64,000 nucleotides of DNA from the NCBI GenBank assembly GCA_045127235.1, contig JBGVPY010000065.1, positions 5,546-69,545 of the forward strand, given 5' to 3'. Origin of the DNA: Eubacteriales bacterium (lineage in GTDB: Bacteria; Bacillota; Clostridia; Oscillospirales; CAG-272). Below are positions 40,668 to 59,291 of this stretch, one piece after another. A program made the position numbers and the translations under genes. A model generated the notes under the pieces. That model ran no database searches and was not told the origin of the DNA. It was given only the letters and a program-made list of their open reading frames with translations. Position 1 is the first letter of the stretch. Every line of letters begins with the position of its first letter.

Positions 40668-41000
40668 CTATTTCATTTGGTTGAATAATTCAAACATAAC
40701 GTTGCGACTTGCAGTTGACATTTTTCTGTACCTGCGAATCAATTCTTTTTCTTGGTTGTTGAGTGGGTAATCAATGCTTTCAAAAACAAACAGTTCCCAT
40801 AAAGCAATACCTAAAGAATCACATAAACGATTAAGTGTACGGATGCTCGGTACACTTCTTTTTTTGAAAAGGTCATTTAAGGTGTTAATGGATAGATTAG
40901 CTCTCAATGAAAGCTCATAAATAGATAGGCTTTCTTCAACTCTAAGACTATCAATTTTTGCTACGATAAAATCAATGATTTGTTGGTTAGTAAGTATCAT
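40668..41000 (-). CDS. XRE-family HTH regulator
   Basis: Start at 41000 lies 6 nt after GGAGG. LSIYELSLRANLSINTLNDLFKKRSVPSIRTLNRLCDSLGI is an HTH_3-type motif. Confidence 0.8.
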   Translation of the reverse strand: MILTNQQIIDFIVAKIDSLRVEESLSIYELSLRANLSINTLNDLFKKRSVPSIRTLNRLCDSLGIALWELFVFESIDYPLNNQEKELIRRYRKMSTASRNVMFELFNQMK

Positions 41001-41150
41001 ATAAGTCCTCCTTAAGAGGTCTTTTAACACCAAAAATGAAAAATGGGGTGGCAAAATGAAAGCAAATTGGGTTTTTGGGGTGGTAAAGTGCGTTGAAATA
41101 ACAGTTTATTGATAGTAAAATTATGGCATATTTTTTACTCGGAGATAATA

Positions 41151-42104
41151 ATGGAAAGTGCAGAAATCAATTTAACCTATTTTGATGAAATAAATAGTAA
41201 AAGTGTTGAATGGTTATGGTATCCGTATATTCCGTATGGAAAAATTACGATTATTCAAGGAGATCCGGGAGAAGGCAAAACTTCTTTGATTTTAAGTTTA
41301 GTTGCGTTATTGTCTAATAACGGTAAATTACCTTGTAGCGACAAAAAGGTAAATGGAATAACTATCTATCAAAATGCTGAAGATGATATGGCAGACACAA
41401 TCAAACCTCGATTAGAACGATATGGAGCTAATTGCAATAATGTATGTTTTGTAAATAGCTATGATTATTCTAATTCGTTTAGCGAAAACGGAATTGAAAA
41501 GGCAATATTAGAAACTGGAGCAAAACTCCTTGTCCTCGATCCAATACAATCTTTTCTTGGAGAAAATGTTGATATTAACAGAGCAAATTCTATTCGCCCA
41601 TTTATGACAAGTTTAAGTGAAACTGCTCGTAGAACAGGTTGTGCAATAGTCCTTATAGGTCATTTGAACAAAAATTCAAGTGGTAAGGCGAATTATAGAG
41701 GACTGGGCTCAATAGATATACTTGCAGCAGCAAGAAGTGTTTTGTTAGTTGGTAGAACCTCTGCAAACGAAAGTATAAAGGTGATGGCACATCAAAAAAA
41801 TAATCTTGCTCCTTTAGGTAAGTCGATAGCATTCAAATTGCAAAGCGGCAAGGTAATATGGATAGGAGAGCAAGATATATCAGCAGAGGATGTTATTACA
41901 GGCGGAAGTGTAAAATATTCCAAATTAGAAGAAGCTATGGAATTTTTGCTTAATTTTCTTGAAGATGGAATGAAACCATACAAGGAAATCGAAGAACAGT
42001 TTTTGGAACTTCAAATATGTAGAAGAACATTTATGAAAGCAAAGGCACAATTAGTTATTAAATCAGTCAAAAAAAGTGATGGCTGGTATTGGGAATTGTC
42101 ATAA
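41151..42104 (+). CDS. RecA-fold AAA ATPase (AAA_25/RepA-like)
   Basis: Walker A IIQGDPGEGKTS. Walker B KLLVLDPIQSF. Confidence 0.7.
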   Translation: MESAEINLTYFDEINSKSVEWLWYPYIPYGKITIIQGDPGEGKTSLILSLVALLSNNGKLPCSDKKVNGITIYQNAEDDMADTIKPRLERYGANCNNVCFVNSYDYSNSFSENGIEKAILETGAKLLVLDPIQSFLGENVDINRANSIRPFMTSLSETARRTGCAIVLIGHLNKNSSGKANYRGLGSIDILAAARSVLLVGRTSANESIKVMAHQKNNLAPLGKSIAFKLQSGKVIWIGEQDISAEDVITGGSVKYSKLEEAMEFLLNFLEDGMKPYKEIEEQFLELQICRRTFMKAKAQLVIKSVKKSDGWYWELS

Positions 42105-42110
42105 TGGAAG

Positions 42111-43901
42111 GTGAATATGGATTTTAATTTTCAAGGTAGTGGTGTAGTTAGTCAAAAGCCAGAAGGAGCGTCAAAATTTATTCCTGCTATGGCAAAAACA
42201 AATATTTATGATGCTAATAGAGTTTTTAAGGCTTGTGCGTATTGTAGAGTATCAACAGATAATGATGAACAAAAAACTTCGTTTGCCTTACAAAAAGACC
42301 ACTATCAGCAGCTTGCAGGTTCACATCCGAATTGGGATTTAAGGCATATTTTTGCAGACGAAGGTATTTCGGGTACATCACTTAAAAATCGTGTTCAATT
42401 CTCTGAAATGATAGAACGGTGTGAAGCTGGAGAATTTGATTTAATATTAACTAAGAGTGTATCTCGTTTTGCAAGAAATCTTGTCGATTGTCTTTCGCTT
42501 GTACGTAAGCTTAAAAATCACAATCCACCGATAGGCGTTTTCTTTGAAACGGACAACCTGTTTACTCTATCTGAGGACTCTGAATTAAGACTTTCAATAT
42601 TAGCTTCTTTTGCTCAAGAAGAATCTGTGAAGAAAAGTGAAAGTATGAACTGGTCGCTTCAAGAACGCTTCAAAAAGGGTGATTTGTTGATGCCAGAGCT
42701 TTATGGTTACAGGAGACCGAGAAATTCAGAGGGCAAGATTATAAAACACACCAAGCTTGAAATTTACGAACCGGAAGCTATAGTTATTCGTTTTATTTAT
42801 GATGCTTTTTTATCTGGATATACATCCGAGAGTATCGCTAATATTTTAACTGAAAATGAAATTCCAACTAAAACAGGTAGCAATAAATGGCATGAGGGTT
42901 CTGTTAGTTACATACTTAAAAACGAAAGATATTGTGGTAGTGTTTTAACGTGGAAAACTTTTACTGCCGATATTTTTGAACACAAAAAAAGGAAAAACAA
43001 CAGAAATAGAGACCAATATTTATATCAAGACAATCACGAACCCATCATATCTGTTGAAAAGTACGAAGCTGTTCAAGAACTTATGGAAAATCGCAAACAC
43101 GGTATGAGAGGCTTGCATGTAATGCACGTTATTGATATGGGTGTTTTTGCTGGATATGTTCCAATAAATCACCACTGGATAAATGATGATGTGGAAGCTT
43201 ATTTTGAAGCATCAAATAGTGTAAGAACAGTACGACAGGAACGAAGAATACCAAAATCATATTTTAGTGCGTTTGATTTGCAAGGCTATGAGGTTGTAAG
43301 AGAGCAATTTTTAACAACTCGTCATGAAATGCCCGCATTAACCATTGCAAATGAAAAGATTTCTTTTAACAGTAAGTGTTTTAAGAAAATGGTAGGAGCT
43401 ACCCATATTCAACTTTTGTTGCATCCTACACAACGAAAAATAGCAATAAGACCATGTACGTATGAATATCCGTATGCTATTTCAATTCAATCACGAACAG
43501 GTGATACAGTATCAAGTAAGGCTTTGAGTTGTGCTTCATTTATACGAATTTTATATTGTATTATGGGTTGGAATCCCGACTATTACCAGAGAATAATAGG
43601 AACGCTCATTGAAAAAGGAAACGACCAAATTATAGTTTTCAATTTGTGTAATGCTATGCCGTTAATGCTTCTTGATGAAGAAAAGAAAAAACGTGTTGGT
43701 GTTTGTCCCGAAGAATGGGATGATTTTGGTAGCGAGTTTTATGAATATGTAGAAGAAAACGATTTGTTTTATTTGCCCAATAATACTAACTTAGGATTGG
43801 ATGCAAAGGGAACTCCAATTTCAGGACAACTTCCATTTGAAATAGATTGGAAAAGACATTTGGAAATGTATAGGGAAAGGAATGTAACGGAAAATGAATA
43901 A
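42111..43901 (+). CDS. large serine recombinase with C-terminal extra domain
   Basis: ACAYCRVSTDNDEQ (catalytic Ser), LTKSVSRFARN, LYGYRR recombinase domain. The C-terminal ~130 aa is homologous to the three downstream ORFs. Confidence 0.88.
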   Translation: MNMDFNFQGSGVVSQKPEGASKFIPAMAKTNIYDANRVFKACAYCRVSTDNDEQKTSFALQKDHYQQLAGSHPNWDLRHIFADEGISGTSLKNRVQFSEMIERCEAGEFDLILTKSVSRFARNLVDCLSLVRKLKNHNPPIGVFFETDNLFTLSEDSELRLSILASFAQEESVKKSESMNWSLQERFKKGDLLMPELYGYRRPRNSEGKIIKHTKLEIYEPEAIVIRFIYDAFLSGYTSESIANILTENEIPTKTGSNKWHEGSVSYILKNERYCGSVLTWKTFTADIFEHKKRKNNRNRDQYLYQDNHEPIISVEKYEAVQELMENRKHGMRGLHVMHVIDMGVFAGYVPINHHWINDDVEAYFEASNSVRTVRQERRIPKSYFSAFDLQGYEVVREQFLTTRHEMPALTIANEKISFNSKCFKKMVGATHIQLLLHPTQRKIAIRPCTYEYPYAISIQSRTGDTVSSKALSCASFIRILYCIMGWNPDYYQRIIGTLIEKGNDQIIVFNLCNAMPLMLLDEEKKKRVGVCPEEWDDFGSEFYEYVEENDLFYLPNNTNLGLDAKGTPISGQLPFEIDWKRHLEMYRERNVTENE

Positions 43902-44484
43902 TGAACAGGAATATATCTATGAAATAGGTGATGATGAAGAAAAAGAAGAAGTCAATCTTGCGGGCTACCAAGTAACAAAAGCAGAACTTTTTGCTCATTC
44001 AAGAGAGCCATCAGTTACAATATGGCAGAATAAAATTAAATTCAATATGGCTTGTTTGAAGCGATTTCCAAAAGTAACGCATGTGTTGATTTTGATTAAC
44101 CAAGATCAAAAGCGCTTAATTGTAAAACCTTGTAGTCCAGATACACCAGATTCTTTAAGGTGGGCTACAGGTGGTGGCGAAAAGGAAGTCAAGGCAAGAG
44201 ATATGTTATGCTACATTTTCTCCGAAAAAATATATCACTTAATGGAGTGGAGCAAAGACTATAGATATAAAATACTCGGAAAGCCTGCTGTTTGTAATGA
44301 TGAAGCACTATATTTATTCAAATTAACCGATTTTGAATTATTTATAGCGAAAGGTAAATACAAACGTAGGTCGTATTTGCCTGAGGATTGGCGAGATTGT
44401 TTTGGTACTCCTATAGAAGAACATGAAGATGTGTATAATATTGATTTAGCAGATGGTTACATAATAACCGGAAAGAAGGATTAA
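43894..44484 (+). CDS. unknown-domain protein, paralog set member 1
   Basis: VTIWQNKIKFNMACLKRF...HVLILINQDQKRLIVKPC...YRYKILG. Confidence 0.65.
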   Translation: MNNEQEYIYEIGDDEEKEEVNLAGYQVTKAELFAHSREPSVTIWQNKIKFNMACLKRFPKVTHVLILINQDQKRLIVKPCSPDTPDSLRWATGGGEKEVKARDMLCYIFSEKIYHLMEWSKDYRYKILGKPAVCNDEALYLFKLTDFELFIAKGKYKRRSYLPEDWRDCFGTPIEEHEDVYNIDLADGYIITGKKD

Positions 44485-44485
44485 G

Positions 44486-44950
44486 ATGGGTTCATATAGT
44501 TTTGATACTGAATTAGAGGAAATTTCTCTTAATGGCTTTCAAATAGTTGGAAACAAATATTTTGGTAGGGTGCAAGGTGCAACAATGAGCCTTCAAAAAA
44601 GGTGTGTTGTGTTTAACACGGTTGCAGTTAAAGAATTGAATAACTGCGAAGCAATTCAAATTTTGATTAACGAAAAACAAAAGTGTGTTTTGATAAAACC
44701 TATTTCTTCTCATGATAGTGATGCGATTATTTGGAATAAAGGCAAAGAAAAACAGTTTTCAAGATTAGAATGTAGTTCTTTTTCAAAGCATTTATTCGAT
44801 TTATGGGGATTGGATGTAAAGTTGAAGTATATTGCAGATGGAAGGCTCGTAAGAGTTGATAATAAGGTAATGATGATATTCAATTTTAATAATCCTATAA
44901 TCTATGATGGCAAAAAAAGGTTGAAAGAAGATTATGAAGATAGAAACTAA
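44486..44950 (+). CDS. unknown-domain protein, paralog set member 2
   Basis: MSLQKRCVVFNTVAVKEL...IQILINEKQKCVLIKPI...LKYIADG. Confidence 0.65.
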   Translation: MGSYSFDTELEEISLNGFQIVGNKYFGRVQGATMSLQKRCVVFNTVAVKELNNCEAIQILINEKQKCVLIKPISSHDSDAIIWNKGKEKQFSRLECSSFSKHLFDLWGLDVKLKYIADGRLVRVDNKVMMIFNFNNPIIYDGKKRLKEDYEDRN

Positions 44951-45293
44951 AATATCTTTTTACTTAGCCAATAACACTATAAGAATTTTTAAGAGTACAA
45001 TTCGTTTTATGGGTGAGCCGAAGTTTATTAGGTTTAGAATAAGCGAAGATAGAAAATCTATGATTTTAGAACCATATCATAAAAAGACGTTTACTTCTTT
45101 CAAAATACCTAAAAATTTATTTGACTATGGCGGCAGTATGCAGGTTCATAGTAAAGCATTTTGTAGCTTGTTAGCAGCTCAGTTGAATTGGAATGCAGAA
45201 TGTTCTTACAGAATAGTGGGAGGCTTGCTACATAAGCCAAAACAAATGGCGATATTTGATTTAACATCTGCGGAGGTTATACGCCAAGAATAA
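44934..45293 (+). CDS. unknown-domain protein, paralog set member 3
   Basis: NNTIRIFKSTIRFM...IRFRISEDRKSMILEPY...SYRIVGG. Confidence 0.6.
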   Translation: MKIETKISFYLANNTIRIFKSTIRFMGEPKFIRFRISEDRKSMILEPYHKKTFTSFKIPKNLFDYGGSMQVHSKAFCSLLAAQLNWNAECSYRIVGGLLHKPKQMAIFDLTSAEVIRQE

Positions 45294-45312
45294 ACTGAAA
45301 GGATTGAATTTT

Positions 45313-45516
45313 ATGGATTTTGCAGATGAAGTAAAATATGTTCGTAATAAATTATGCTTATCTCAAGCAGAAATGGCAAAGCTATTAGACGTAACTGAAC
45401 AAACAATAAGGCACTGGGAAAATAGAGAATCAAAGCCAAGATGTATTTCTATACGTAAGTTGAAAGCTGTTTGTGCAAAAAATAAAATAGATCTATCCAA
45501 ATTCGCTGAAAAGTGA
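45313..45516 (+). CDS. XRE-family HTH protein
   Basis: LCLSQAEMAKLLDVTEQTIRHWENRESKP. Confidence 0.75.
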   Translation: MDFADEVKYVRNKLCLSQAEMAKLLDVTEQTIRHWENRESKPRCISIRKLKAVCAKNKIDLSKFAEK

Positions 45517-45533
45517 TACTTTATCAATTATAT

Positions 45534-45578
45534 TCGTTGAAATAGTAGATGTCAATATAAAATCTACTCTAACAACGA
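45534..45578. promoter_or_regulatory. nested inverted repeat, operator candidate
   Basis: tcgttg..agtagat..atctact..caacga, lying upstream of a TATAAT-like box and the next HTH gene. Confidence 0.45.
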
Positions 45579-45629
45579 ATAAAATTACACCTTGTATGCG
45601 TTATAATAGAATATAGGGTGGTGATAAAA

Positions 45630-45935
45630 ATGCAGATGGAAGATATCAAAAAGAGAATTACCGAATTGAGAATTAAAAAAGGTGTATCGGCAAGAGATAT
45701 GAGTCTTTCTATCGGTATGGGTGAAGCTTATATTAGCAATCTTGAAAATGGTAAAGCTATGCCATCCATTGAAGTTTTATTCTATATCTGCGAGTATTTT
45801 CAAATCACACCAGCAGAGTTTTTTGATGAAGATATTAAAGAGCCGACCAAAGCTTATGAAGTATATCAACTTATCAAAAAATTGAACAACGACCAATTAG
45901 ATGTAATAAAGTCTATGGTTGAACAGATGAAATAA
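45630..45935 (+). CDS. XRE-family HTH protein
   Basis: KGVSARDMSLSIGMGEAYISNLENGKAMPSIEVLFYICEYF. Confidence 0.8.
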   Translation: MQMEDIKKRITELRIKKGVSARDMSLSIGMGEAYISNLENGKAMPSIEVLFYICEYFQITPAEFFDEDIKEPTKAYEVYQLIKKLNNDQLDVIKSMVEQMK

Positions 45936-45940
45936 AAAAA

Positions 45941-45977
45941 GGGTAGAGCTTTGTAAAACTCTATCCTTGTTTTGTTT
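45941..45977 (+). terminator. intrinsic terminator
   Basis: gggtagag / ctctatcc stem plus T-rich tail. The 3' half is repeated at 47053-47072. Confidence 0.65.
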
Positions 45978-45990
45978 ATGGGAGAAAATT

Positions 45991-46185
45991 ATGAAAAATA
46001 AAATTATTAAAAATGCTATTCAATGTAAACGATGTGGTGATATAATAGAGTCAAAGCATGTACATGATTTTGTAACTTGTAAATGTGGAGCTTGTTCAGT
46101 TGATGGCGGACACGATTATTTACGACGCTGCTTTGCTGAAAAAGATTGCTACATAGATTTATCGGAGGTAGAGAAAAATGATTGA
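45991..46185 (+). CDS. small zinc-ribbon protein, paralog of 56515-56718
   Basis: IIKNAIQCKRCGDIIESKHVHDFVTCKCGACSVDGGHDYLRRC has two CxxC-type pairs. Confidence 0.7.
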   Translation: MKNKIIKNAIQCKRCGDIIESKHVHDFVTCKCGACSVDGGHDYLRRCFAEKDCYIDLSEVEKND

Positions 46186-47026
46186 TAGAAGAAAGAAAAA
46201 TGCGGAAATTTTTTCGCACACACAAAGCTTTTATTCTTCTAATTTAGAGTTGAAAAATAATATATCGCTATCAATAGATAATCAAGTTTTTATATCTGAG
46301 AAGTCTGAGGTTGTATTACCAAAAGCGACAAAGAAAGAGAAAGCACAAATTATTGTAAGTGGTAAACGTACATTTGAAGCTGCTGAGCATTATGTAAAGC
46401 AAGGGAAAAAGACTTGTGTTCTTAACTTTGCATCTGCCACAAATGCCGGAGGTGGAGTTGTAAATGGCTCTTCTGCTCAAGAAGAGTGTTTATGCAGATG
46501 TTCAACCCTTTATCCTTGCTTGAGAGTAGATAAGTTGTGGAAGGAATTTTATTTACCACATAGAGAAGCTAACAACCCACTTTATAATAATGATTGTATA
46601 TATACACCTGATGTATATGTATTTAAAAGCGATATTGATTTTCCAGAATTACTATCAAAAAATGAATGGTGGAAAGTGAATATACTTACTTGTGCAGCAC
46701 CAAATCTAAGAGAGAAGCCAAGCAATGCAATGAACCCTAATGCAGGTAGTAAGCAAGCGAAAATAACAATACAAGAATTAGAGAAGTTGTTAGAATCTCG
46801 TATTAGAAGAATTTTTGAAATAGCCGCTTCAAATGAAAATGAGGTTTTAATTCTGGGTGCTTTCGGATGTGGAGCTTTTAGAAATCCTCCAGAGGTCGTT
46901 GCGAAGGTGTTTAATAGAGTAATGAAGGAATTTGTATATTACTTTGATATTATTGAGTATGCAGTTTTTCATAGAGTAGGGGAACTTGCAAATTATGAAG
47001 CATTTCAAAGGAACATAGAAAGATAA
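46178..47026 (+). CDS. macro-domain protein of the TIGR02452 / microbial PARG-like type
   Basis: VLNFASATNAGGGVVNGSSAQEECLCRCSTLY and LGAFGCGAFRNPPEVVA. Overlaps the Zn-ribbon gene by 8 nt. Confidence 0.8.
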   Translation: MIDRRKKNAEIFSHTQSFYSSNLELKNNISLSIDNQVFISEKSEVVLPKATKKEKAQIIVSGKRTFEAAEHYVKQGKKTCVLNFASATNAGGGVVNGSSAQEECLCRCSTLYPCLRVDKLWKEFYLPHREANNPLYNNDCIYTPDVYVFKSDIDFPELLSKNEWWKVNILTCAAPNLREKPSNAMNPNAGSKQAKITIQELEKLLESRIRRIFEIAASNENEVLILGAFGCGAFRNPPEVVAKVFNRVMKEFVYYFDIIEYAVFHRVGELANYEAFQRNIER

Positions 47027-47033
47027 AAAATAA

Positions 47034-47070
47034 GGATAGGGCTTGTTGTCTGCTCTATCCTGTTTTGTTT
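47034..47070 (+). terminator. intrinsic terminator
   Basis: ggatagggc / gctctatcc stem plus T-rich tail. Confidence 0.65.
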
Positions 47071-47084
47071 ATAAAACGAAAAAA

Positions 47085-47166: not shown

Positions 47167-47216
47167 TGGTCGAAGTGCGGAGGTTCGAACTCCGGGCCTC
47201 ATGGTCCCGAACCAAT
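47167..47216 (-). other. tRNA-Pro(CGG)-like 3' fragment (anticodon loop to CCA), probable att remnant
   Basis: The minus strand reads attgg-TTCGGGA-ccatg-aggcc-cggag-TTCGAAC-ctccg-cacttcg-a-CCA. The T-arm and the 7-nt anticodon loop format are canonical. The anticodon stem is degenerate, and there is no D-arm or 5' acceptor strand upstream. Confidence 0.6.
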
Positions 47217-47548
47217 ACTAGACAGTTTTTGCCATCATTTCCCCTCATCTTGACACCTTTCCTCTCGGAAAACCATGCTTTCGTAACCTCTTACGAACAC
47301 TGTTTCCACCTAGTCCACTCCCGTATATGGTCTACACTGTGGTCAAAGCCATAAATCAACCACAAAAAATCCACCCTGTGTGCGATTTTAATCCCACCAC
47401 CATGTTAACATATAATCCTCAAATTTGCAACCCTGTGTCAAAAAACCACACACCGTTGCATTTTTCTTTTTCAGCATTCAAAAATTGCCCCGCAGTAAAC
47501 AAAGAATACACCCGGAGTAAATTTTTGCAATGTTCTTGTCGAAAGCTC

Positions 47549-47577
47549 TTGTGCAACGATTTAAAAAGGTGTATAAT
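47549..47577 (+). promoter_or_regulatory. promoter candidate for the endonuclease gene
   Basis: TTGTGC, 17 nt, TATAAT (47572-47577). Confidence 0.4.
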
Positions 47578-47673
47578 ATTTATATTAAGGTGATTTCGTG
47601 TATAAAAGCGTTATTCACTAGATCATATTGCAAACAGAACTGAATATAGAAAAACATTTAGAAAGGAATAACG

Positions 47674-49059
47674 ATGGACAATTTATGGTTGCTTACCGAA
47701 GAACGCCCTAAGCTTTCTGTTGTATTAACAATTTTGGACGAATATAACAACGACTTTGGCGCGTCCGTAACGGTTAGTGAGAACTTTAATATTAGACCTA
47801 TTATCAAAAACGGTAAATTTACATTTGAATATTTGGTAGAGGGTGTATCTGTTCAAGGAATCGCAAATGTCTTTATAGAAATAGTCAGCGGTAATTCAAG
47901 TTTTGTTGATTACATGCTTATTCGACAGGAAACGAAGCCTACAGATCATTCTTTAGACAATGTTCTTATGGCGATTGAAGAAACAAAGACAAGTGACGCC
48001 GAATCAAGAAACACAGGCATATATCAGCGTGCATCAAAATTTGTTTACATAGACAACTACTGCCCTCATGCAAAGAAGTACATGTTATACAATGAGGAAA
48101 TGACGCCTGATGAAGATAGAACTCCCACAGATACAAATAGATTTGGAACGAACATGCTTCTTACTTTGGGAGTAAAGTTTATCGGCAAAACCATGAGAGG
48201 TTTTAGAGCTTTTGGAAATGTCGATGAGATGGTTGCACAAAAATCGAGCATGCGTCTGCCGAATCATACGAATGTTCCCATTCTTCTTCACAAGTATGCG
48301 GATAGGATTACTGTTTCTGGACGATTGGCAAAGCCAAAAGATGCCGGAAATATTGGTCATGACCCTAATATTGGTGCTCTTTCTTGCATTGGATACACGC
48401 TCCGCAAGCTCGGTTGGGATAAGGATATTGTTGTAACACATCACGGAGTTTCTCAATCCTATGTTGACAGAACGAGAGGGAGAAATAAGTGTTTGTTCCT
48501 CTTCAGCATGAATCAGATGAAGTTGGACGGCATAACTATGCCTTCCATCGTTCCTATGCCAGAATTTTATTGGAACTACTCATGTTCTTCTGAAAAAGTA
48601 GCGTCAATCTTCTTGCACCTTACATGTCAATATTCAGGAATTCACGGAATCTATGAAAATCACGCTGGTTGTGAACGCGGATATTTCAGAACACAAACAG
48701 GAGCTTTTTTGGCATTACCGAAAAAGGATAGATTTGGAGAAAACCTTTTACTTCCTGATGTCGTTTTGTGTGACGATGCAATAAGAGAAATCTACAATGT
48801 TGAAGGAAAGAAATTATCCACTCTTTATGATGGCGTCGCAGAGGTTGACACATACGATTCAATAGAAGATGAGTTCATAAAACCTTACTATCGTGGATAT
48901 TCTATTCAACGTTGGATATCTATTTTCGGAGGAAATCTAAAAAGAATTCCTCACGAAAAAGTTTTGATTTATTTAAATGAATCAGGAGAGGTCTATATAA
49001 ATAATGCCGCTCCTGCGAACATTAAAGCTGCGTTCAACAGAATCGGCATTACTTGTTAA
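47674..49059 (+). CDS. putative restriction endonuclease (unknown family)
   Basis: Convergent with and overlapping the methyltransferase gene end. Possible PD-ExK elements FVDYML...AIEETK. Assignment is mainly by context. Confidence 0.5.
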   Translation: MDNLWLLTEERPKLSVVLTILDEYNNDFGASVTVSENFNIRPIIKNGKFTFEYLVEGVSVQGIANVFIEIVSGNSSFVDYMLIRQETKPTDHSLDNVLMAIEETKTSDAESRNTGIYQRASKFVYIDNYCPHAKKYMLYNEEMTPDEDRTPTDTNRFGTNMLLTLGVKFIGKTMRGFRAFGNVDEMVAQKSSMRLPNHTNVPILLHKYADRITVSGRLAKPKDAGNIGHDPNIGALSCIGYTLRKLGWDKDIVVTHHGVSQSYVDRTRGRNKCLFLFSMNQMKLDGITMPSIVPMPEFYWNYSCSSEKVASIFLHLTCQYSGIHGIYENHAGCERGYFRTQTGAFLALPKKDRFGENLLLPDVVLCDDAIREIYNVEGKKLSTLYDGVAEVDTYDSIEDEFIKPYYRGYSIQRWISIFGGNLKRIPHEKVLIYLNESGEVYINNAAPANIKAAFNRIGITC

Positions 49060-50018
49060 TATTTTCGGAATATCAAAATGTATTGATGGATTTGATTTGC
49101 TACAAAATCAAAGGGATACCCGTATGGGAACAGCTTAACAGACTGATCGGCCCATATCTTCATTCCTCGATAGTATAGCTTAGGTATTTCGTTCAAAGCA
49201 TCTATAATTCGGGCATGAAGTAAATTTGTTTCTTTCTTTTTAGGTTGCATGTCCTTGCAGAAAACAACCAAATATCCTTTGGACTTTAGATAAACTAAGG
49301 ATTTTTCGACAATGGTTTTCAAAGTGGGGATAAATTTATCGGGATCGATATTTCCCAAATCAACATCATAATTAGTAAACGGGGTTGCGGTTTTACCATA
49401 GACATCTATGTCCGCTCCCGTTTTTTCTTTTGACATCATGTTGGCATATGGTGGATCAATAAGGATCATACCTACTTTTTCTCCACGTAAAACTCGGTCC
49501 ATTTCGTCTTGATTTGACAAAACATTGTTGCAATCACCGCAGATGCAAGGAAATGCCGTAAGTTTTAAACTTTCAGCAGCTAATTTGTAGGCATCAATAT
49601 AAGCTGAATTTAACTCGATTCCGACAGCTCTACGATTGCATAAAGCGGCACCCAAAAGAGAACCGCCAACTCCTGCAAAATAATCTAACACAATTTCGTT
49701 TTCTTTTGTAAAAAATCGAATTAGATCGCGCATAAGCTGTGGAGGTTTGGGAGTAGGATGGACCTTTCGGATTTTATGTGCATAACTATCCTCGCCTTTG
49801 GTAGAATAGCACGTATTTATCACGGAACAAATTTGAGTAGTCCATTCTGCACCAGATAAATCGTTAATTTGATTTGTCATACAATATCTTTTTCCATTGG
49901 AAATTTGTATATTAATGTTACTGTCTTCCACAAATATTGCATTATCGATATCCGCCTTAACCCAACTAGGTAAAGCAGATATTTCTTCTTCTGATAAAAT
50001 ATCTTTTACTTTTCTCAT
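49056..50018 (-). CDS. DNA methyltransferase (N6-A or N4-C, DPPY type)
   Basis: HPTPKPPQL, LDYFAGVGGS (motif I), ILIDPPYANM (motif IV). Confidence 0.85.
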   Translation of the reverse strand: MRKVKDILSEEEISALPSWVKADIDNAIFVEDSNINIQISNGKRYCMTNQINDLSGAEWTTQICSVINTCYSTKGEDSYAHKIRKVHPTPKPPQLMRDLIRFFTKENEIVLDYFAGVGGSLLGAALCNRRAVGIELNSAYIDAYKLAAESLKLTAFPCICGDCNNVLSNQDEMDRVLRGEKVGMILIDPPYANMMSKEKTGADIDVYGKTATPFTNYDVDLGNIDPDKFIPTLKTIVEKSLVYLKSKGYLVVFCKDMQPKKKETNLLHARIIDALNEIPKLYYRGMKIWADQSVKLFPYGYPFDFVANQIHQYILIFRKY

Positions 50019-50033
50019 GGCATCGTTCGTATT

Positions 50034-51980
50034 TTAGTAATTTGTGATTAAAACTTCAATTGTTTCCGTTGATTTGTCTTTTAATTGGTAATTACAATTG
50101 GAGTAACTACTGTTTATATAATTGATATTGTATTTTTTGGACCACTCCATTAAAATCTTGTTTTCTTTTCCTTTGTGCTTTAAAACATTGGAAAGTGCAA
50201 AACGAATTCCTTTTTTGTTGGCTTCATCTAGGTATGCACATAGAGCTTTTTCTTCTTCTTCACCCCAGTCATGAAACCCACGATTTCCATCATTGTAGGA
50301 TCCGGTAGTTATCAAATATGGAGGATCGCAATAAATAAAATCATTGCAGTCTAAAGCAGATAGACTGATTTCCCTAAAATCTCTAGTGTAAAATTCAATG
50401 TTTTTCTTTTTTAGTGTTTCCATAAAAAGAATTAGATTGCGTCTTGTTGTTTCAGAATATTGGCTTCTGTTTCTTCCAAAAGGATTGTTGTATTCCATTT
50501 GGTTGTTAAATCTAAATTGATAATTAAAAGAGAAGCATGAAAGTGTGAACAAGTCTACTGGATTACCAGTTTGATTATAGTAATCTCTAAAGGCTTTATA
50601 ACCGGCTTCATTTTCTTTTGACAAGTTATATTCTTTTATTTTGTCATCAATTCTTTTTAAGACGGTAGGAATATCGGCAAAACAAAAGAAACGTACCATT
50701 TCAACAATACGAGTATTAAGATCATTGCAAATAGTCCTGTTTGCATCAACATTAACAGAAACATTGAATCCACCTGCAAACAAGTCGACAAAGGTATCGA
50801 TATTTTGTGGGAATAAACTCATTAGTTGAGGTAAAAGTTTGTATTTACCACCTATATAATTCATAGGACTTTTGACAAATCTTTTTGAGTCAACACCTGG
50901 TATTAACAACGTTTCTTGCGTTTTTGGTTGCGTGATTGGTTGAAAGTTTTCTTTCACTTGTTTTTTTGCGTAAAATATGTATTCGAAGTGATCAGCTTTC
51001 CCGTTTTGAGGTTGTTTAGATTTATACCTGCTATAAGGGATTTTATATAGCTTTACTGTGTCTGCTATGCAATTGGATTTTAAAATATCTATAATTTCAT
51101 CGGCAGAAAGAAGGCCGTCATCACTGTAGCTGATAATGATATGTTTGAATTCGGCATCTGAAATTAAAGATTCAAATGAAGATTTTACAGATTTTTTTAC
51201 GCAATAGTTGGATTTTTCATTGCCGTATGGACGAACACCAGTAACACCCTTTAAAGAAGGAGAGTCGTATTTTGCAACGGTCTCAAGTAGATGATAGTTA
51301 GGCAAATACTGACGTTCGTTGTATGGGGGATCTATATACAAGATGTCACCACTTATTTTTTTAATGAGTTCGTTGGCGTCTTCGTTATAACAAATGTTTC
51401 TTTGATCGTTGTCAATAACACTTAATTTTATTAACTCAAAACGTTTGAAAACGCGCTTGTCCCATGATTTTAAATACGCACCGTAAGTTCCGGTTATGTT
51501 TGAAACGTATGGGATACCTTCGATTAATGCCGCCAAAAGATATTTGAATTCGTTAGAATCTATCAAACCGCTTTTTTTCCAAGTGTCAATTGTAGTTCTA
51601 ATAAAATCAATTCTTCGAGCGCTTTCTTCGGTTAGATACATGCGACCAGCAGGACCAACAGGAGAATATTCTTGTGTAACAAAACCTTGAAAAGAAGAAA
51701 CATCTGTAGACTCAAGATAAGCAAATGGGTCATCTATGCCAGATGCTTTTAATTTTTCAAAGGTGGGAACTGTGTTGTTTTCAATAGTAGCAGCAGTTAA
51801 TATATGTGAAAAATAGAGAAGATCATTACTTATTATTTTGTAATATGGTTTGAAAAATCTAGAAACTGAACCAGTTCCAGAAAAGATATCACAAAACACT
51901 TGACTGCCGTCGTTGCAATTTTCGTCAATGACTTCTTTTATATTTTCTAATAGGTTGCTTTTATTTCCTATAAATCTCAT
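50034..51980 (-). CDS. two-domain (tandem Dam/D12-class) adenine methyltransferase, M.FokI-like architecture
   Basis: Domain 1: MRFIGNKSNLL, DIFSGTGSV, LYIDPPYNERQY. Domain 2: NYIGGKYKLL, DLFAGGFNV, IYCDPPYLITTGSYN. Confidence 0.88.
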   Translation of the reverse strand: MRFIGNKSNLLENIKEVIDENCNDGSQVFCDIFSGTGSVSRFFKPYYKIISNDLLYFSHILTAATIENNTVPTFEKLKASGIDDPFAYLESTDVSSFQGFVTQEYSPVGPAGRMYLTEESARRIDFIRTTIDTWKKSGLIDSNEFKYLLAALIEGIPYVSNITGTYGAYLKSWDKRVFKRFELIKLSVIDNDQRNICYNEDANELIKKISGDILYIDPPYNERQYLPNYHLLETVAKYDSPSLKGVTGVRPYGNEKSNYCVKKSVKSSFESLISDAEFKHIIISYSDDGLLSADEIIDILKSNCIADTVKLYKIPYSRYKSKQPQNGKADHFEYIFYAKKQVKENFQPITQPKTQETLLIPGVDSKRFVKSPMNYIGGKYKLLPQLMSLFPQNIDTFVDLFAGGFNVSVNVDANRTICNDLNTRIVEMVRFFCFADIPTVLKRIDDKIKEYNLSKENEAGYKAFRDYYNQTGNPVDLFTLSCFSFNYQFRFNNQMEYNNPFGRNRSQYSETTRRNLILFMETLKKKNIEFYTRDFREISLSALDCNDFIYCDPPYLITTGSYNDGNRGFHDWGEEEEKALCAYLDEANKKGIRFALSNVLKHKGKENKILMEWSKKYNINYINSSYSNCNYQLKDKSTETIEVLITNY

Positions 51981-52084
51981 AAATCCTCCAAATTACATCC
52001 TATAACATCCTTGATTATGATTATAACTTAGTTCGCGCGTAAAGTCAAGAGTTTGGGAAAATAAAATTAAATGTTGTAATATTG

Positions 52085-52113
52085 TTGCAGACGATTGATT
52101 TGTTTGCTATAAT
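52085..52113 (+). promoter_or_regulatory. promoter candidate for the STAND gene
   Basis: TTGCAG, 17 nt, TATAAT (52108-52113). Confidence 0.45.
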
Positions 52114-52204
52114 AAACTTATAAATTACAAGTTTACTAAAAATGTAAAAATTTAGTTGAAATAAACGTTGTCAACCAAAACAATATTATCAGGAGGAGCG
52201 TACA

Positions 52205-55200
52205 ATGAATTGGGGGACTTTTCAGACATATAATGATGCATCTGACAAAGCTTTTGAAGTTTTGTGCAATCAACTTTTTGAAAATTGGTGTAGAAGCGAG
52301 TATAAAGAAAAAATAGAATCTTTCAATGTTGTTAATGGTGCCGGTGGTGATGGAGGAGTAGAGTCTTATGCAACATTAACCACAGGGGAAATTATTGCTA
52401 TGCAAGCAAAGTGGTTTTTAACTAGTATAGATAGTAATAAAATTTCTCAAATTAGGAATTCGATTAAAACTGCTATAAGCTTAAGACCTAATATTAATAG
52501 ATATATCGTATGCGTTCCAAGAGATCTTTCTTCGTTAACAGCTAAAAGTGAAAATACAGAAGAAAATCGCTGGAATAACTTGGTTGCAGAGTTTCCAAAA
52601 ATTCAGATTGAACTATGGAATGACACACGAATAACAACGGAAATACAAAAGGATACTTCGGTTGGAATAAATCGTTATTGGTTTTCAAAAACGGAAATTT
52701 CAAAAGACACTATAAGATTTGCTTTTGAAAAAGGAAAATCAAGTTGGCTGTCATCAAAATATGTTCCTGATTTAAATGAAAATGGTGTGATAAAACAGAA
52801 TATATGTAGATTCTTAGGCGACGAACAAGTGCATGTTCAATTAATTAAAAAAATAGATAAAATAAAAAAACTATATAGTAATTTTGACTTTTCTTTTAAA
52901 CAATTATTAGAGATTGCTAAATCTAAAATTTCCGATATAGAAACCATATTTTTAAATATTCAAACAGAACATTCAAAAATTAGTTTAATATTAGAACAAA
53001 TAGATAGATGGTTGACAAATGACACAAACGAGATTTCGGAAATAGCAGAATCTTCTTTTTATGTTAACTATGAAGAGTATATAGAAAAAATACAAGAGAG
53101 CCGTGCTTGGCACGAGCATTATTTTCATACATCAGATATTGTCAAAATACTTAAGAAACTTTCTCAATTTGATTATTATCAATTAGTGCATAATGTTAAA
53201 GAGTTAATAGATAGAACAAGTTACTGGTGTATAGGAGATCCGGGCACTGGTAAAACGCATGGAGTTGCTTCAACGGTAGAAGAAATAATTAAAGATGACT
53301 ATCATTCAGCCATAATTATTCAAGCGAAAGAAATACCTCAAACATATACATGGCATAACATCGTCATGGCTCATTTGGGATTGTCTTCGTGGGGAGAAGA
53401 TGAATTATTTCAAGGACTAATTTCGATGGTTAATCGAAATAGGTTTAAGCCGGAGAACTTAAATAAAACAGTAAAAATACAACCTAAATTTTTAATTATA
53501 GTTGATGGAATTGATGAATCATCTCTTCACGAAAAATGGATTGAACGAATAAAAGAAACTGCAGCAATTGTGGAAAAATATCCGCAGCTACGATTTTTCT
53601 TTACATCAAGACCATCTGTTTTTCCACGTGATTTGGGAAATGCTAGAACTTTAAGATTGAGAAGTGATGGGGATGTTTCAATTAGTCTTTTGTTTGACAA
53701 ATACATAAAAGCATATAATGTCAATGCAAAAAACAAAGGTTGGTTGAAGTATGCATTAACCACGCCTCTTTCATTGAAATTGTTTTGTGAATTAAATCAA
53801 AACAAGAAGGTAAGTTATTCTAAGGGTGCTGACCTTGCTCTTTCTAAATTGTTGAGAGAAAAAATTAATAAAATAGAAGAGGAATTTGTCAAACAAGCAG
53901 ATATAGATTTTGCTAATCAATATATTCATAGGACTATAATGCTTTTGACTAAAGAATTTTATACCGCTTCAAAATTGGAACGTTCAAACCTTGTATTGCG
54001 CATAAAAAATGAGTTGAATGTTGAAAAAATATGTGCAGAAAAATTACTTAAGTGTTTAGAACAATATGGTATTATTCGTTTATACTGTGAGCATAGTAAC
54101 ACATTTTTGAGCCCCAATACATATTTTTATTATTCTGGCATTCAAGGGTACTTTGATTATGCGTCTGCTCTTTTAATTCTTGATGAATGTGAGCATCCGG
54201 AAAAGATACAGTTTGATAAATATCCAAACATCCCTCAAAATTCATTGTATGGACTAGCTGTAATATCGATGCAGGAATACGGATATTTAATAACAAAAAA
54301 TCCTACCATAAAAGACATAGCATCCGAGTGGACGATATTGGAAATACAATTTTGGGCACTGAGACATTCATCTGCGGAGCAAGCACAACAGTATAAAGAA
54401 AGATGTTTAGAATTGATGGCAGAATCTGCGGATAATCTTATTACTATAACAAACAGCCTAATCTTGCCACTGTCTAGAGATGTGGAGCATCCTCTTGGAG
54501 TAATGCTATTAGATGAGTTTTTGCTAAGCTTTTCTTTGCCTGCTGAAAGAGATATTATTTGGTCAGTTTCTGGATATTTACGTGATGCCTATGGCAAACG
54601 TTGGTACAGAAGCGAGGAGCTTAAGTTGGGAAAAGATGAATACGGTTTGACAGAAGAGGATGTTTATAATGGTTGTCCGATCGTTTATGCATGGGCTCTT
54701 GCTTGTGTGAACAATTCTGTTCGTCAAACATATCGAAACGAATTAATGAAATGGGCTAAAAAAGTTCCGGAAGAATTTTTAAAATTGTTTTTAAAATTTT
54801 CGACTGTTAATGATCCTCAGATACTCAGCGACATGTTTTCTATAATGATGTGTTTAGTGTATGAATTACCTAGAGCTACCATTATCAAGGAAGTGAGTCA
54901 ATGGATCATGGCAAACGTTTTACATCCCAGCAAGATAGATTTAAACAGAAATATATCAGTACGATATTATTCGATTGCAATTCTTAGAAAAGCTATTTCT
55001 ATGAACATTATTTCAGTAACCGAAGCTATTTCTTGTTTGCCACCATATCATCTTGGGACATATGATATTAAATTGAGTAAAGAAGCGCTTGCTGGAACAA
55101 GAATGTCTGGTTATAGTGGTATAAATTACGATTTAGCAAGATATGTTTTAGTTGATCATTTTGAATCTGCATTTTATGATTTTAGGCATCGTAAAGAAAA

Positions 55201-56449
55201 AAAGTTAGAAAGATTAATAAAAAAAGTTGTTGAAAACAATCCAGACTTTTGTGGAATAACTGTTGAAAAATTCATTATTTCTGCAGCATTTGCGTATATA
55301 ACTGAAATGGGCTGGAAAGAATCCGAATTTCGCAATTTAACAAAAAATGAAACAGACTCGGATATAATAGGGGGTGTTGATTGCGACATAGGAAGGACGT
55401 ATTATCATGCCACTCACGGACAAAAAAGCAATGTGATGACCATTGCTGAAAAATATGTATGGCAAGCAAAAGATTATATAAGTGGTTTTTTGTGCGATAG
55501 ACTGCCTTGCGGTGAAAGATATGATTACATAACTGATTATGGAATGCTTAACGATTTTACCATACCAGTCCAAGAAATGATGCAAATAGATCCTGATAAT
55601 ATTCCAGAAGATAATCCTTGGCATAATCCTGAACCAAACGTTGCTTCTTTGTCCGGAAATAACAGTAGCAAAGAAGAAGTTATTAGGGATATTGTTAATG
55701 CGCCAGATTTTGATTGGGTGAAATGGATAGATGTTTCTAATAACGACAAAAAGTATAAATTAGAAAGTGAAGAATTGTTGGCATTGAGTTCATTTTCGTG
55801 TTTCTACGGGACAGCGGGAGTGGAAACATGTTTGTTCATTAACTCTATAATTTTAAATGAAAACGAATTTGATAAATTTATATTAAAATTACAAGAAAAT
55901 GAATTGTCTCCTATGTTATGTAATCCCACGGATTGGTATGGTGGAATAGAAACTTTATGTTATATAACCCCTAAAGAGGTTTGTTGGTTTGATTGGAAAA
56001 ATCGATATGAAAGTATGAACTGTGAGAGCTTTCCTGAAATAGAAATAACATCCGCTGTAGACAAATGTTGTTATAATTATTTGGAATATGGCGATGTGGA
56101 GTACTATATGCCTTCAACATTATTGCGTGCAATGCTAAATATAAAAGATTCGGATGGATATGCTTTTAAAGATGACAACGATGTTGTAAAAGCGGAGTAT
56201 TGCGTAACTGGCGAAAAGTGGGGAACATACCAAGATTATGTTTTAGTAGACAAAAAAATATTACTTTCTCAATTACATGCACAAAACAAAAAAGTGGTTT
56301 GGATTATGAAAGAGTATCGAAGAGAAGATGGAAAATCACGAGAAAAACATGGTGGCTTTTATGCGGATAAAGAAAAAAGCTACATAGGATATTTCAATGG
56401 CTCCAATTTTGAAGTTAAGGAAATATATTCAAGGATAGAACGTGATTGA
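52205..56449 (+). CDS. 1414-aa STAND NTPase with N-terminal Mrr-like nuclease (Avs-like antiviral sensor candidate)
   Basis: N-terminal GAGGDGGVESY...IIAMQAKWF (Mrr_cat-like D...QxK). Walker A CIGDPGTGKTHG (about 53233-53259). Walker B FLIIVDGIDES (about 53491-53520). About 900 aa of helical C-terminal region. Confidence 0.75.
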   Translation: MNWGTFQTYNDASDKAFEVLCNQLFENWCRSEYKEKIESFNVVNGAGGDGGVESYATLTTGEIIAMQAKWFLTSIDSNKISQIRNSIKTAISLRPNINRYIVCVPRDLSSLTAKSENTEENRWNNLVAEFPKIQIELWNDTRITTEIQKDTSVGINRYWFSKTEISKDTIRFAFEKGKSSWLSSKYVPDLNENGVIKQNICRFLGDEQVHVQLIKKIDKIKKLYSNFDFSFKQLLEIAKSKISDIETIFLNIQTEHSKISLILEQIDRWLTNDTNEISEIAESSFYVNYEEYIEKIQESRAWHEHYFHTSDIVKILKKLSQFDYYQLVHNVKELIDRTSYWCIGDPGTGKTHGVASTVEEIIKDDYHSAIIIQAKEIPQTYTWHNIVMAHLGLSSWGEDELFQGLISMVNRNRFKPENLNKTVKIQPKFLIIVDGIDESSLHEKWIERIKETAAIVEKYPQLRFFFTSRPSVFPRDLGNARTLRLRSDGDVSISLLFDKYIKAYNVNAKNKGWLKYALTTPLSLKLFCELNQNKKVSYSKGADLALSKLLREKINKIEEEFVKQADIDFANQYIHRTIMLLTKEFYTASKLERSNLVLRIKNELNVEKICAEKLLKCLEQYGIIRLYCEHSNTFLSPNTYFYYSGIQGYFDYASALLILDECEHPEKIQFDKYPNIPQNSLYGLAVISMQEYGYLITKNPTIKDIASEWTILEIQFWALRHSSAEQAQQYKERCLELMAESADNLITITNSLILPLSRDVEHPLGVMLLDEFLLSFSLPAERDIIWSVSGYLRDAYGKRWYRSEELKLGKDEYGLTEEDVYNGCPIVYAWALACVNNSVRQTYRNELMKWAKKVPEEFLKLFLKFSTVNDPQILSDMFSIMMCLVYELPRATIIKEVSQWIMANVLHPSKIDLNRNISVRYYSIAILRKAISMNIISVTEAISCLPPYHLGTYDIKLSKEALAGTRMSGYSGINYDLARYVLVDHFESAFYDFRHRKEKKLERLIKKVVENNPDFCGITVEKFIISAAFAYITEMGWKESEFRNLTKNETDSDIIGGVDCDIGRTYYHATHGQKSNVMTIAEKYVWQAKDYISGFLCDRLPCGERYDYITDYGMLNDFTIPVQEMMQIDPDNIPEDNPWHNPEPNVASLSGNNSSKEEVIRDIVNAPDFDWVKWIDVSNNDKKYKLESEELLALSSFSCFYGTAGVETCLFINSIILNENEFDKFILKLQENELSPMLCNPTDWYGGIETLCYITPKEVCWFDWKNRYESMNCESFPEIEITSAVDKCCYNYLEYGDVEYYMPSTLLRAMLNIKDSDGYAFKDDNDVVKAEYCVTGEKWGTYQDYVLVDKKILLSQLHAQNKKVVWIMKEYRREDGKSREKHGGFYADKEKSYIGYFNGSNFEVKEIYSRIERD

Positions 56450-56514
56450 AATTGAAAGTAAACTTAATTTTATAGTTGCGAATCATACGATTTCAAAACA
56501 AGAAAGAGAAAAAT

Positions 56515-56718
56515 ATGACCAAAATAATAAAAAATGCAATTCAGTGCAAACTGTGTGGAGAAGTTATTGAATCCAAGCATGTTCACGACTTTGTGCAATG
56601 CAAATGCGGAGCATGTGCAGTTGATGGCGGACATGATTATTTGCGTAGGTGCTTTAGAGATAAGGACTGTTACATAGACCTTTCCGAAAGTATCGAAATA
56701 TCTGAAGAAGATTCGTAA
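56515..56718 (+). CDS. small zinc-ribbon protein, paralog of 45991-46185
   Basis: IIKNAIQCKLCGEVIESKHVHDFVQCKCGACAVDGGHDYLRRC. Confidence 0.7.
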   Translation: MTKIIKNAIQCKLCGEVIESKHVHDFVQCKCGACAVDGGHDYLRRCFRDKDCYIDLSESIEISEEDS

Positions 56719-56781
56719 TAACACTGGACTTTTGAAAACTTGTGTGATATTGTGATGTTACCAAACAAAGGAGGTAGCATT

Positions 56782-57033
56782 ATGATATTAGAAGCGTTGA
56801 AAAGTTTGTATCCAAATGCGAGTGAAAAGGTGCTCATAGCTGTCAAGGAAGATCTTGAAAAGCTGCGTGGAAAGCAAGTAAGCACAGTAGAGCTTGTAGA
56901 TTGGATGGACAAGCTTGTTGCAGCACACACAATTAATGAAGCATTAAAAATAGAGGACGATTCAAAGCCGACCAGTGTCGGTAATGAGTCGTCCTTTGTT
57001 TATGTGGAGGGCAGTGATGAAATCAATGATTGA
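56782..57033 (+). CDS. hypothetical protein
   Basis: ATG follows AAAGGAGG. Confidence 0.55.
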   Translation: MILEALKSLYPNASEKVLIAVKEDLEKLRGKQVSTVELVDWMDKLVAAHTINEALKIEDDSKPTSVGNESSFVYVEGSDEIND

Positions 57034-57283
57034 TGAGCTGTGGTATGGGAATGTATCTCCAATGGATGATACAAGAAACAACACGGAAGAAATGAAGGAG
57101 CTGATGAGCTACATAGCTAGGCATCAGGAAGAACTCGTGGCAACACTAACGGACGAGCAGAAGGCGATTTTTGAGAAGTTCGATGACTGTTGGAGCGAAT
57201 ACGCAAGCAAGGCAGAAAAAGCGATATTTTCATATGCCTTCAAGCTCGGAGCAAGGCTCACGCTCGAAACACTAACCGACTGA
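57017..57283 (+). CDS. hypothetical protein
   Basis: ATG follows GGAGGG. Overlaps the upstream gene. Confidence 0.55.
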   Translation: MKSMIDELWYGNVSPMDDTRNNTEEMKELMSYIARHQEELVATLTDEQKAIFEKFDDCWSEYASKAEKAIFSYAFKLGARLTLETLTD

Positions 57284-57286
57284 AAA

Positions 57287-57309
57287 GCACGGCAAAAACC
57301 GTGTTTTTT
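57287..57309 (+). terminator. intrinsic terminator
   Basis: gcacgg / ccgtg stem plus TTTTTT. Confidence 0.65.
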
Positions 57310-57352
57310 CTTTGCCAATTTTAAGATGTCTTGAAATCGCGACATGCAAGAC

Positions 57353-57381
57353 TTGACAAATTTTTCACTATCCGGTAAAAT
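57353..57381 (+). promoter_or_regulatory. near-consensus promoter with no obvious downstream ORF
   Basis: TTGACA, 17 nt, TAAAAT. The next credible CDS starts at 58063. Confidence 0.5.
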
Positions 57382-57654
57382 AGAAACACATAGAGCTACG
57401 ACCTTGTGTTATGGCTCATAAAATAGTTTGTTACTGTTCTTTTTTATGCTGATAATGCAGAGTACTTAGCAGGCTTGCCTGCACAAATAAATATCTACGA
57501 AGGTAGGTATCATTACATATTTAAGTAACAAGCGAAAGGTAAAAACTACGATTTTGTGCGTGGTTCTTTTCGCTATGCTTGAATGTGAAGTGATGCCTAT
57601 CTTTTTTGCGTTTAGTAAACAATTTGTAAACATTTTCAAAAAGGGGAATATTTT

Positions 57655-59282: not shown

Positions 59283-59291
59283 GGAGAAAAA

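Follow-up and report, generated by a model that had tools for sequence, protein, structure and literature searches.

Why is a large serine recombinase (LSR) followed by three free copies of its own C-terminal domain? The question is raised by a 64,000-nt stretch of a Eubacteriales bacterium genome (GenBank assembly GCA_045127235.1, contig JBGVPY010000065.1, positions 5,546 to 69,545 of the forward strand), here called the window, in which an atypical LSR gene (42111-43901) precedes three small open reading frames (ORFs), orfA (43894-44484), orfB (44486-44950) and orfC (44934-45293), all on the + strand. A preliminary description of the window had given the ORF starts as 43894, 44486 and 44934, exactly as found here. 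We lean towards the reading that the four genes form a conserved recombination module carried by mobile elements of gut Clostridia, in which A, B and C act as non-catalytic, DNA-binding accessory subunits of the LSR and control synapsis, direction or site choice. This reading is supported by the paralogy of the copies, the missing zinc ribbon, intact catalytic motifs, near-invariant synteny, translational coupling, gene fusions and basic domain cores. What appears to be new here is an LSR with a novel replacement domain and a set of dedicated paralogous accessory subunits.

Architecture of the recombinase and its domain paralogs

The LSR is 596 amino acids (aa) long and is built from a Resolvase domain at residues 42-191 (PF00239, E=1.8e-26), a Recombinase domain at residues 222-328 (PF07508, E=3.2e-24), which corresponds to DNA-binding domain 1 (DBD1), a linker and a novel C-terminal domain. 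Typical LSRs combine the Resolvase and Recombinase domains with Zn_ribbon_recom, while members of the multi-targeting TndX-like clade carry DUF4368 (Durrant et al., PMC10083194). Neither is found in the window LSR: there is no match at E<=1 to PF13408 (Zn_ribbon_recom, DBD2) in scans that do detect this domain in the neighbouring canonical LSRs of related loci, no match to DUF4368 (PF14287), and no CxxC pair within residues 329-596. Among PDB sequences, 3G13, a recombinase from a C. difficile conjugative transposon, matches best (E=4e-33), and TnpX (2MHC) also matches. The LSR aligns with SPbeta SprA (9DXH) over residues 86-327 only, PDB alignments end at about residue 327, and the last 266 aa have no match among PDB chains at E<=10. 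Similarity to CcrB in NCBIfam reaches E=9e-26, which is far below the family cut-off. Among 68 orthologs the catalytic domain is the most conserved part of the protein, and the motifs CAYCRVST and TKsVSRFARN are at least 95% conserved. The atypical LSR thus appears to be under strong constraint as an enzyme and is predicted to be catalytically intact, with a novel basic domain apparently replacing the usual zinc-ribbon/coiled-coil domain.

The copy of the domain carried by the LSR (copy 1) spans residues 387-546 by its HHalign range (43269-43748, + strand), with a core at residues 412-517 (43344-43661, + strand). The free copies follow directly. orfA (196 aa, copy 2) carries the domain at residues 19-177 (43948-44424) with a core at 45-146, orfB (154 aa, copy 3) at residues 9-138 (44510-44899) with a core at 39-141, and orfC (119 aa, copy 4) at residues 11-115 (44964-45278), orfC being the core alone. 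The genes are tightly packed: the LSR gene and orfA overlap by 8 nt, orfA and orfB are separated by 1 nt, and orfB and orfC overlap by 17 nt.

The four-fold paralogy put forward in the preliminary description is borne out by both sequence and profile comparison. Within the window, BLASTP relates the LSR C-terminus to A (E=1.5e-23), B (1.4e-9) and C (9e-6), and A to B (5.6e-17), and two further diverged elements show the same relations. A against C and B against C give no significant match in direct comparison. Nothing was found in favour of reading the similarity as chance, low complexity or an ORF-calling artefact. Profiles built from 51-sequence alignments for each class (LSRc, A, B, C) speak against such a reading. 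All six HHalign comparisons are significant (94.6-99.9%, E from 7e-8 to 2e-35): LSRc-A (99.9%, 2e-35), A-B (99.9%, 7e-33), LSRc-B (99.8%, 1e-27), B-C (98.1%, 9e-14), LSRc-C (97.9%, 4e-13) and A-C (94.6%, 7e-8). Each ORF is moreover kept as a family in about 80 species, and the domain accounts for 2,077 clusters in a 50%-identity library. With this profile-profile significance and family-wide conservation, chance or artefact is ruled out for practical purposes.

What the LSR, A, B and C have in common is a core of about 105 aa, somewhat shorter than the domain of about 120 aa first proposed. In the LSR, A and B, the similarity begins about 20 aa upstream of the pattern originally described, with an 'L.G(Y/F)(Q/E)(V/I)' motif before the core. 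A second motif, 'P(E/D)(E/D)W..FG', follows the core at the C-terminal side in the LSR and A and is missing from B. This pattern of motif sharing arranges the copies in a nested series, from the LSR C-terminus through A and B to C, each retaining less than the one before. Four residues, P79, C106, G129 and F142 in A numbering, are invariant across the A family and the three other copies of the window. The cores of all four classes are basic, with a median net charge of +5.5 to +6.1 (+5.9 for the LSR core) and an isoelectric point (pI) of 9.3-9.6. orfB is basic as a whole (pI about 9) and orfC is the most basic copy (pI about 9.5), while orfA joins an acidic N-terminal tail to its basic core; flanking acidic segments make A and the LSR tail acidic overall. 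Mean pairwise identity is 0.69 for A, 0.51 for the LSR C-terminus, 0.43 for B and 0.42 for C, making A the most conserved protein of the module, ahead of the recombinase itself.

The domain has no counterpart in the resources searched. Pfam, NCBIfam and PHROGs hold no family for A, B or C above threshold, scans of the same three collections find no Resolvase or Recombinase domain in them, and a profile of the domain family has 0 matches at E<=10 against all PDB sequences. DUF6128 (PF19623) was considered and rejected as an identity: orfA scores 15.7 bits and P0121 16.4 bits against a gathering threshold of 27, DUF6128 is not among the families matched by at least two of 119 members, and the literature search returned no paper mentioning it. 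In an AlphaFold2 model of A, core residues 40-155 are confident (pLDDT 80-90) and the elements are ordered beta-beta-alpha-beta-beta and then beta-alpha-beta-beta. A Foldseek search of the PDB with this model gave only noise (best E=0.04, TM score about 0.18). The PCNA/beta-clamp structures that dominate the list were likewise dismissed as noise because their TM scores are about 0.18 and their root-mean-square deviations are above 14 Å. Among predicted viral structures, the only matches are uncharacterised phage proteins of 110-130 aa, including Gp105 of Lactococcus phage KSY1 (TM score 0.64 on the target). The ~105-aa basic alpha/beta domain is therefore undescribed in Pfam, NCBIfam, PHROGs, the PDB and the literature searched, in agreement with the earlier statement that no described equivalent was known.

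The preliminary description had also likened the first half of the domain to AbrB/SpoVT-type swapped-hairpin DNA binders, and this resemblance is not supported. The N-terminal domain of AbrB has a beta-beta-alpha-beta-beta topology, and the first half of the AlphaFold2 model follows the same order. The copies resemble AbrB, SpoVT and MazE in the order of secondary structure over about the first 40 residues of the core, and in small size and basic charge. However, neither the four window copies nor the 119 diverse members match PF04014 (SpoVT/AbrB) at E<=1, the PDB profile search was empty, and no AbrB, MazE or MraZ structure is among the Foldseek PDB matches of the A model. The domain described here is also twice as long and single-chain, and lacks support from profile or fold searches. 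As these searches came back empty, the resemblance is at most a topological echo, and it is very improbable that the copies are transition-state regulators of the AbrB type.

Distribution, gene order and gene fusions

The domain is widespread. A profile search of 1.84 billion representatives yielded the 2,077 clusters at 50% identity, with E<=1e-10 for 1,106; they comprise both stand-alone proteins and C-terminal fusions to proteins with Resolvase and Recombinase domains. orfA alone falls into more than 870 clusters at 90% identity, of which 0 are annotated. Compared by megablast with collections of phages and plasmids, the module gave no matches, and exact-protein look-ups of other window proteins returned no record.

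Gene order was followed in 80 loci from a GTDB data set with one genome per species. Almost all are from Clostridia, namely Oscillospiraceae, Lachnospiraceae, Christensenellales and Acutalibacteraceae. A domain-bearing LSR lies directly 5′ of A in 67 of 70 loci, and the three exceptions are broken LSR genes. B is present after A in 75 of 76 loci and C in 70 of 76, and the order LSR-A-B-C is constant; it is also seen in metagenomic contigs. orfC is present in L001-L004 as well, although it was not called as a gene there. Short contigs of distant members show LSR C-termini upstream and C-class ORFs downstream, and none of the family-member contigs looked up is without an adjacent LSR or LSR fragment. 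The linkage to recombinases, which the preliminary description had offered as a test of its proposal, thus holds across these loci and extends to a distant phage lineage.

The close spacing of the genes is equally general. An in-frame start lies between -20 and +25 nt from the upstream stop in 76 of 80, 80 of 81 and 73 of 74 gene pairs, and by this measure the module genes are translationally coupled. Fusions are found as well. In L087 and L088 (8132-10573), a 1-nt deletion (GCCGGC to GCGGC) fuses the LSR and orfA into a protein of 813 aa, which occurs in the genome of an Acutalibacter intestini isolate and, independently, in a metagenome-assembled genome. Another lineage has an LSRc-A fusion in P0122, and A and C are fused in P0156. 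The coupling and the LSR-A and A-C fusions are compatible with the hetero-oligomeric complex suggested earlier.

One locus shows the module in decay. In L006 (7089-8011), the atypical LSR has suffered a large internal deletion that leaves fragments of 91 aa and 196 aa, while A, B and C beside it are intact and 98-100% identical to those of L005.

Host elements, their ends and cargo

The module occurs in several kinds of element. Loci L005 and L006 have only a block of helix-turn-helix (HTH) gene, AAA_25 ATPase, LSR, A, B and C in common (98% identity), and their flanks differ, so the module is a conserved core amid variable surroundings. The cargo around it consists mostly of defence genes, including ThsA-Macro, Schlafen-AlbA, WYL, methylases and McrB. 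Temperate gut phages of the 'Ca. Heliusvirales' carry LSR-A-C, without B, at about 40% identity. The Coprococcus phage of this group at L011 (PV036435.1, 7137-14748) has three serine recombinases: the atypical LSR lies with A and a C-class ORF in an early operon behind a Cro-like HTH gene, a ParB-like/DUF6551 gene comes after the module, and two convergent canonical zinc-ribbon LSRs lie beside the lysis genes. Its annotation calls one canonical LSR an 'integrase' and the remaining genes of the set hypothetical, and the Heliusvirales paper does not mention recombinases.

A skin-like element of about 9 kb that splits the sporulation regulator gene spoIIID between ...STVH and KD... also bears the module (L083:7036-16253, also L086-L090; Acutalibacter spp. 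and relatives). The rejoined halves of spoIIID match PF12116 at E=1.4e-36. A canonical zinc-ribbon LSR of 515 aa abuts the right junction, just as SpoIVCA abuts the junction of the skin element, and the element further contains NikA/MobC-like genes, an MNT-HepT toxin-antitoxin pair and the atypical LSR-A-B-C. The literature search found no paper on an intervening element in spoIIID.

In the window, the module operon begins with an AAA_25 (RecA/DnaB-like) ATPase gene (41109-42104, + strand; Pfam AAA_25, E=1.5e-22), whose PHROG matches are to primase/helicase and DnaB-like helicase domains; a homolog lies immediately 5′ of the atypical LSR in 30 of 61 loci. Divergent from it is a gene for a Cro/CI-type HTH regulator (40668-41054, - strand; Pfam HTH_26/HTH_3). 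An opposite-strand HTH gene occupies the equivalent position in L001-L008, and the window regulator is likely a repressor of the module operon.

The element that hosts the module can be delimited by comparison with related elements from ruminant and gut metagenomes, which have about 14-17.3 kb and about 31.9-47.1 kb of the window in common with it and nothing to the right of about 47.2 kb. Because sharing stops at about 47.2 kb, the host element, which has PcfJ/PcfK-like genes and a length of at least 33 kb, carries the module close to its right end. The variable parts of the window are a type I restriction-modification (R-M)/GmrSD block and a PARG gene. The block comprises HsdM (18669-20183), HsdS (20180-21376), HsdR (24044-27292) and GmrSD (27347-29119), which together form variable cargo absent from the related elements. 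Many alternative metagenomic joints fall around 20760-21285, and an opposite-strand joint connects 21308 and 26007 (run X6); these joints suggest hsdS shuffling or inversion. Between the module and the right limit lies further variable cargo identified with Pfam (45304-47026, + strand): two HTH proteins, DUF7695 and a microbial-type poly-ADP-ribose glycohydrolase (PARG), with the DUF7695 and PARG genes overlapping (45967-47026). The PARG gene is exchangeable cargo, since a related contig (run X3) has 18 nt in place of 46163-47071.

The right limit of the shared sequence is the 3′ remnant of a tRNA gene (47167-47214, - strand), recognised by its T-arm/acceptor/CCA pattern. The remnant has a depth of 150-180x in metagenomes, where loose ends run on as a tRNA D-arm, and its presence explains a weak Rfam tmRNA match there (E=0.05, 47167-47322). 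It is truncated by a second, different element to the right (47215-64000), which carries two DNA methylases (49056-51980), a STAND-like NTPase of 1414 aa (52205-56449), a MobL relaxase (59292-61022) and two tyrosine integrases (61047-63696).

Element ends are also defined elsewhere. L001-L004 carry an identical element in four different flanks, ending about 650 bp past C, and the L016 element ends about 2.2 kb past C, again in four different flanks. Together with the window, these place the module 0.65-2.2 kb from a defined element end. At L001:9829-10074, and in the same way in L002-L004, four TTGACCACA copies in two tandem pairs precede the right end of the element by 150-250 bp. This right end adjoins a tRNA-like 3′ end, in which the T-stem differs in a compensatory way from one host contig to another. 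The combination of TTGACCACA repeats and a tRNA-like 3′ end was considered as a general end signature and rejected, being absent from the other 80 loci. It is seen at L001 and, inverted, in the window at 47189/47346, with one TTGACCACA at 47346; no extended homology is present, and in the window the tRNA remnant is part of the neighbouring element's junction.

An inversion is seen near the module in one pair of loci. A segment of 844 bp, about 450 bp past orfC, lies in opposite orientations in L016 (11889-12732) and L019 (2564-3405). In L016, a 325-aa ORF, whose N-terminus we take to be AbiH-like, spans the inversion junction intact, and in L019 its 5′ end is flipped away. The segment was rejected as a recombinase substrate, as its junctions have no inverted repeats. 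Four metagenomes contain only one orientation, with no sign of an active switch.

Function and comparison with known systems

Taken together, the sequences strongly suggest a recombinase-linked multi-subunit system. In the reading we favour, A, B and C would join the C-terminal domain of the LSR in an assembly at or next to the recombination sites. As A and the LSR have both flanking motifs in common, A is proposed to be in direct contact with the enzyme, and B and C would bind DNA. Together, the three proteins would take the role of the coiled-coil motif and the recombination directionality factor (RDF), or that of resolvase subunits bound at accessory sites, and would decide which sites synapse and in which direction.

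Several points weigh against this proposal. As the fold is without a characterised structural neighbour, DNA binding by the domain is predicted from its charge and its place in the LSR, and the physical complex and a role in directionality or site selection are, like DNA binding, things that we infer from sequence. A k-mer census of 62-68 loci revealed no conserved DNA motif or inverted repeat beside the module. The LSR and A-B-C appear to be co-transcribed, which is awkward for a simple on/off directionality factor. Furthermore, 32 of the 80 loci also carry canonical zinc-ribbon LSRs. These form doublets or triplets on the upstream side or, downstream, stand alone right at the limit of the shared block, and such edge-placed enzymes are the more obvious integrases of these loci, of the phages and of the spoIIID element. 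Because canonical LSRs co-occur in many host elements, integration need not be the task of the atypical LSR.

This last point leads to a serious rival, if an unlikely one, in which the module is a replication-coupled resolution system or another intramolecular system rather than an integrase. In this view the AAA_25 helicase would drive replication of the excised element, and its multimers or cointegrates would be resolved by the atypical LSR, with A, B and C at accessory sites, where they would make resolution selective like the extra resolvase dimers at res sites II/III. It would fit the AAA_25/DnaB-like ATPase directly upstream in about half of the loci, the phage module's place in an early operon behind a Cro-like HTH gene and beside a ParB-like gene, and the edge-placed canonical LSRs (spoIIID element, L061 group, L016/L035/L074 groups, phages), which would cover integration and excision. 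Yet the AAA_25 gene is missing from the other half of the loci, no res-like repeat array was found, and some islands have the module as their sole conserved core. Nor was a further serine recombinase detected in the window, whose two tyrosine integrases at 61-63.7 kb are part of the neighbouring element, or in the 8 kb upstream of the module in L001-L004. Less probable still is a reading of A, B and C as independent transcription regulators or DNA binders of nucleoid type that serve the mobile element, arose by duplication of the recombinase's DNA-binding domain and have no role in recombination. Small size, basic cores and a place beside HTH regulators, in an operon that a divergently encoded repressor would control, are features that suit such proteins. 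They would not account for the near-absolute linkage in fixed order behind the LSR over wide divergence, the translational coupling, the in-frame LSR-A fusions, the adjacent LSR or LSR fragment in every family contig looked up, or the two flanking motifs that A and the LSR have in common outside the DNA-binding-like core.

If A, B and C are accessory subunits, the module might represent a new serine-recombination architecture, in which an LSR that has shed its zinc-ribbon/coiled-coil forms a hetero-oligomer with two or three non-catalytic paralogs that set sites and direction. This is a tentative proposal. Were it true, directionality and target logic would reside in separate, exchangeable subunits instead of a coiled coil and an unrelated RDF. 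LSRs are leading tools for the insertion of large DNA, and their choice of direction and site is understood only through the zinc-ribbon/coiled-coil and idiosyncratic RDFs. A widespread lineage of more than 2,000 clusters at 50% identity, in which this domain is missing and paralogous mini-subunits are always present, hints at a different, possibly modular, control of serine recombinases. The result also gives a name to a large block of 'hypothetical' genes that form the conserved core in defence islands, in mobilisable elements, in the spoIIID intervening element and in the Heliusvirales, which are very prevalent gut phages. With four genes, the system is small enough to be directly testable.

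Among the known systems closest to the module are the canonical LSRs (phiC31, Bxb1, A118/LI and SPbeta SprA), which have the same catalytic domain and 'Recombinase' DBD1, are found in phages and integrative elements near element ends, and are expected to have small accessory modulators. The atypical LSR differs in having a novel basic domain in place of the zinc-ribbon/coiled-coil (DBD2). A 2025 survey found that RDFs have neither sequence conservation nor synteny with the integrase, are unrelated to it, and dock at the junction of DBD2 and the coiled coil (PMC12286644). That docking site is absent from the atypical LSR, and its accessory genes are two to three paralogs of an integrase domain, fixed immediately downstream. 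Accessory proteins paralogous to the integrase's own domain are described in neither of the two studies (PMC10083194, PMC12286644). The TnpX/TndX LSRs of Tn4451 and Tn5397 are similar in being clostridial mobile-element LSRs with a non-canonical C-terminal region, but the atypical LSR lacks DUF4368, and no free paralogs of the C-terminal domain are reported for the TnpX/TndX enzymes (PMC10083194).

Multi-protein control is known from other serine recombinases. In the res sites II/III of Tn3/gamma-delta, and with Sin or beta recombinase and Hbsu/IHF, extra DNA-bound subunits that do not catalyse impose direction. The likeness to these small serine resolvases is a functional analogy only, of non-catalysing subunits in a synaptic complex: there, the accessory part is played by the resolvase itself or by a host protein and not by dedicated paralogs, and no res-like site array was found here. 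CcrA/CcrB of SCCmec and the serine-recombinase triplets of Firmicutes integrative and conjugative elements are also multi-protein systems encoded by adjacent genes, and canonical LSR doublets and triplets often adjoin the atypical module. In those systems every subunit is a full recombinase, whereas the extra subunits here consist of the C-terminal domain only.

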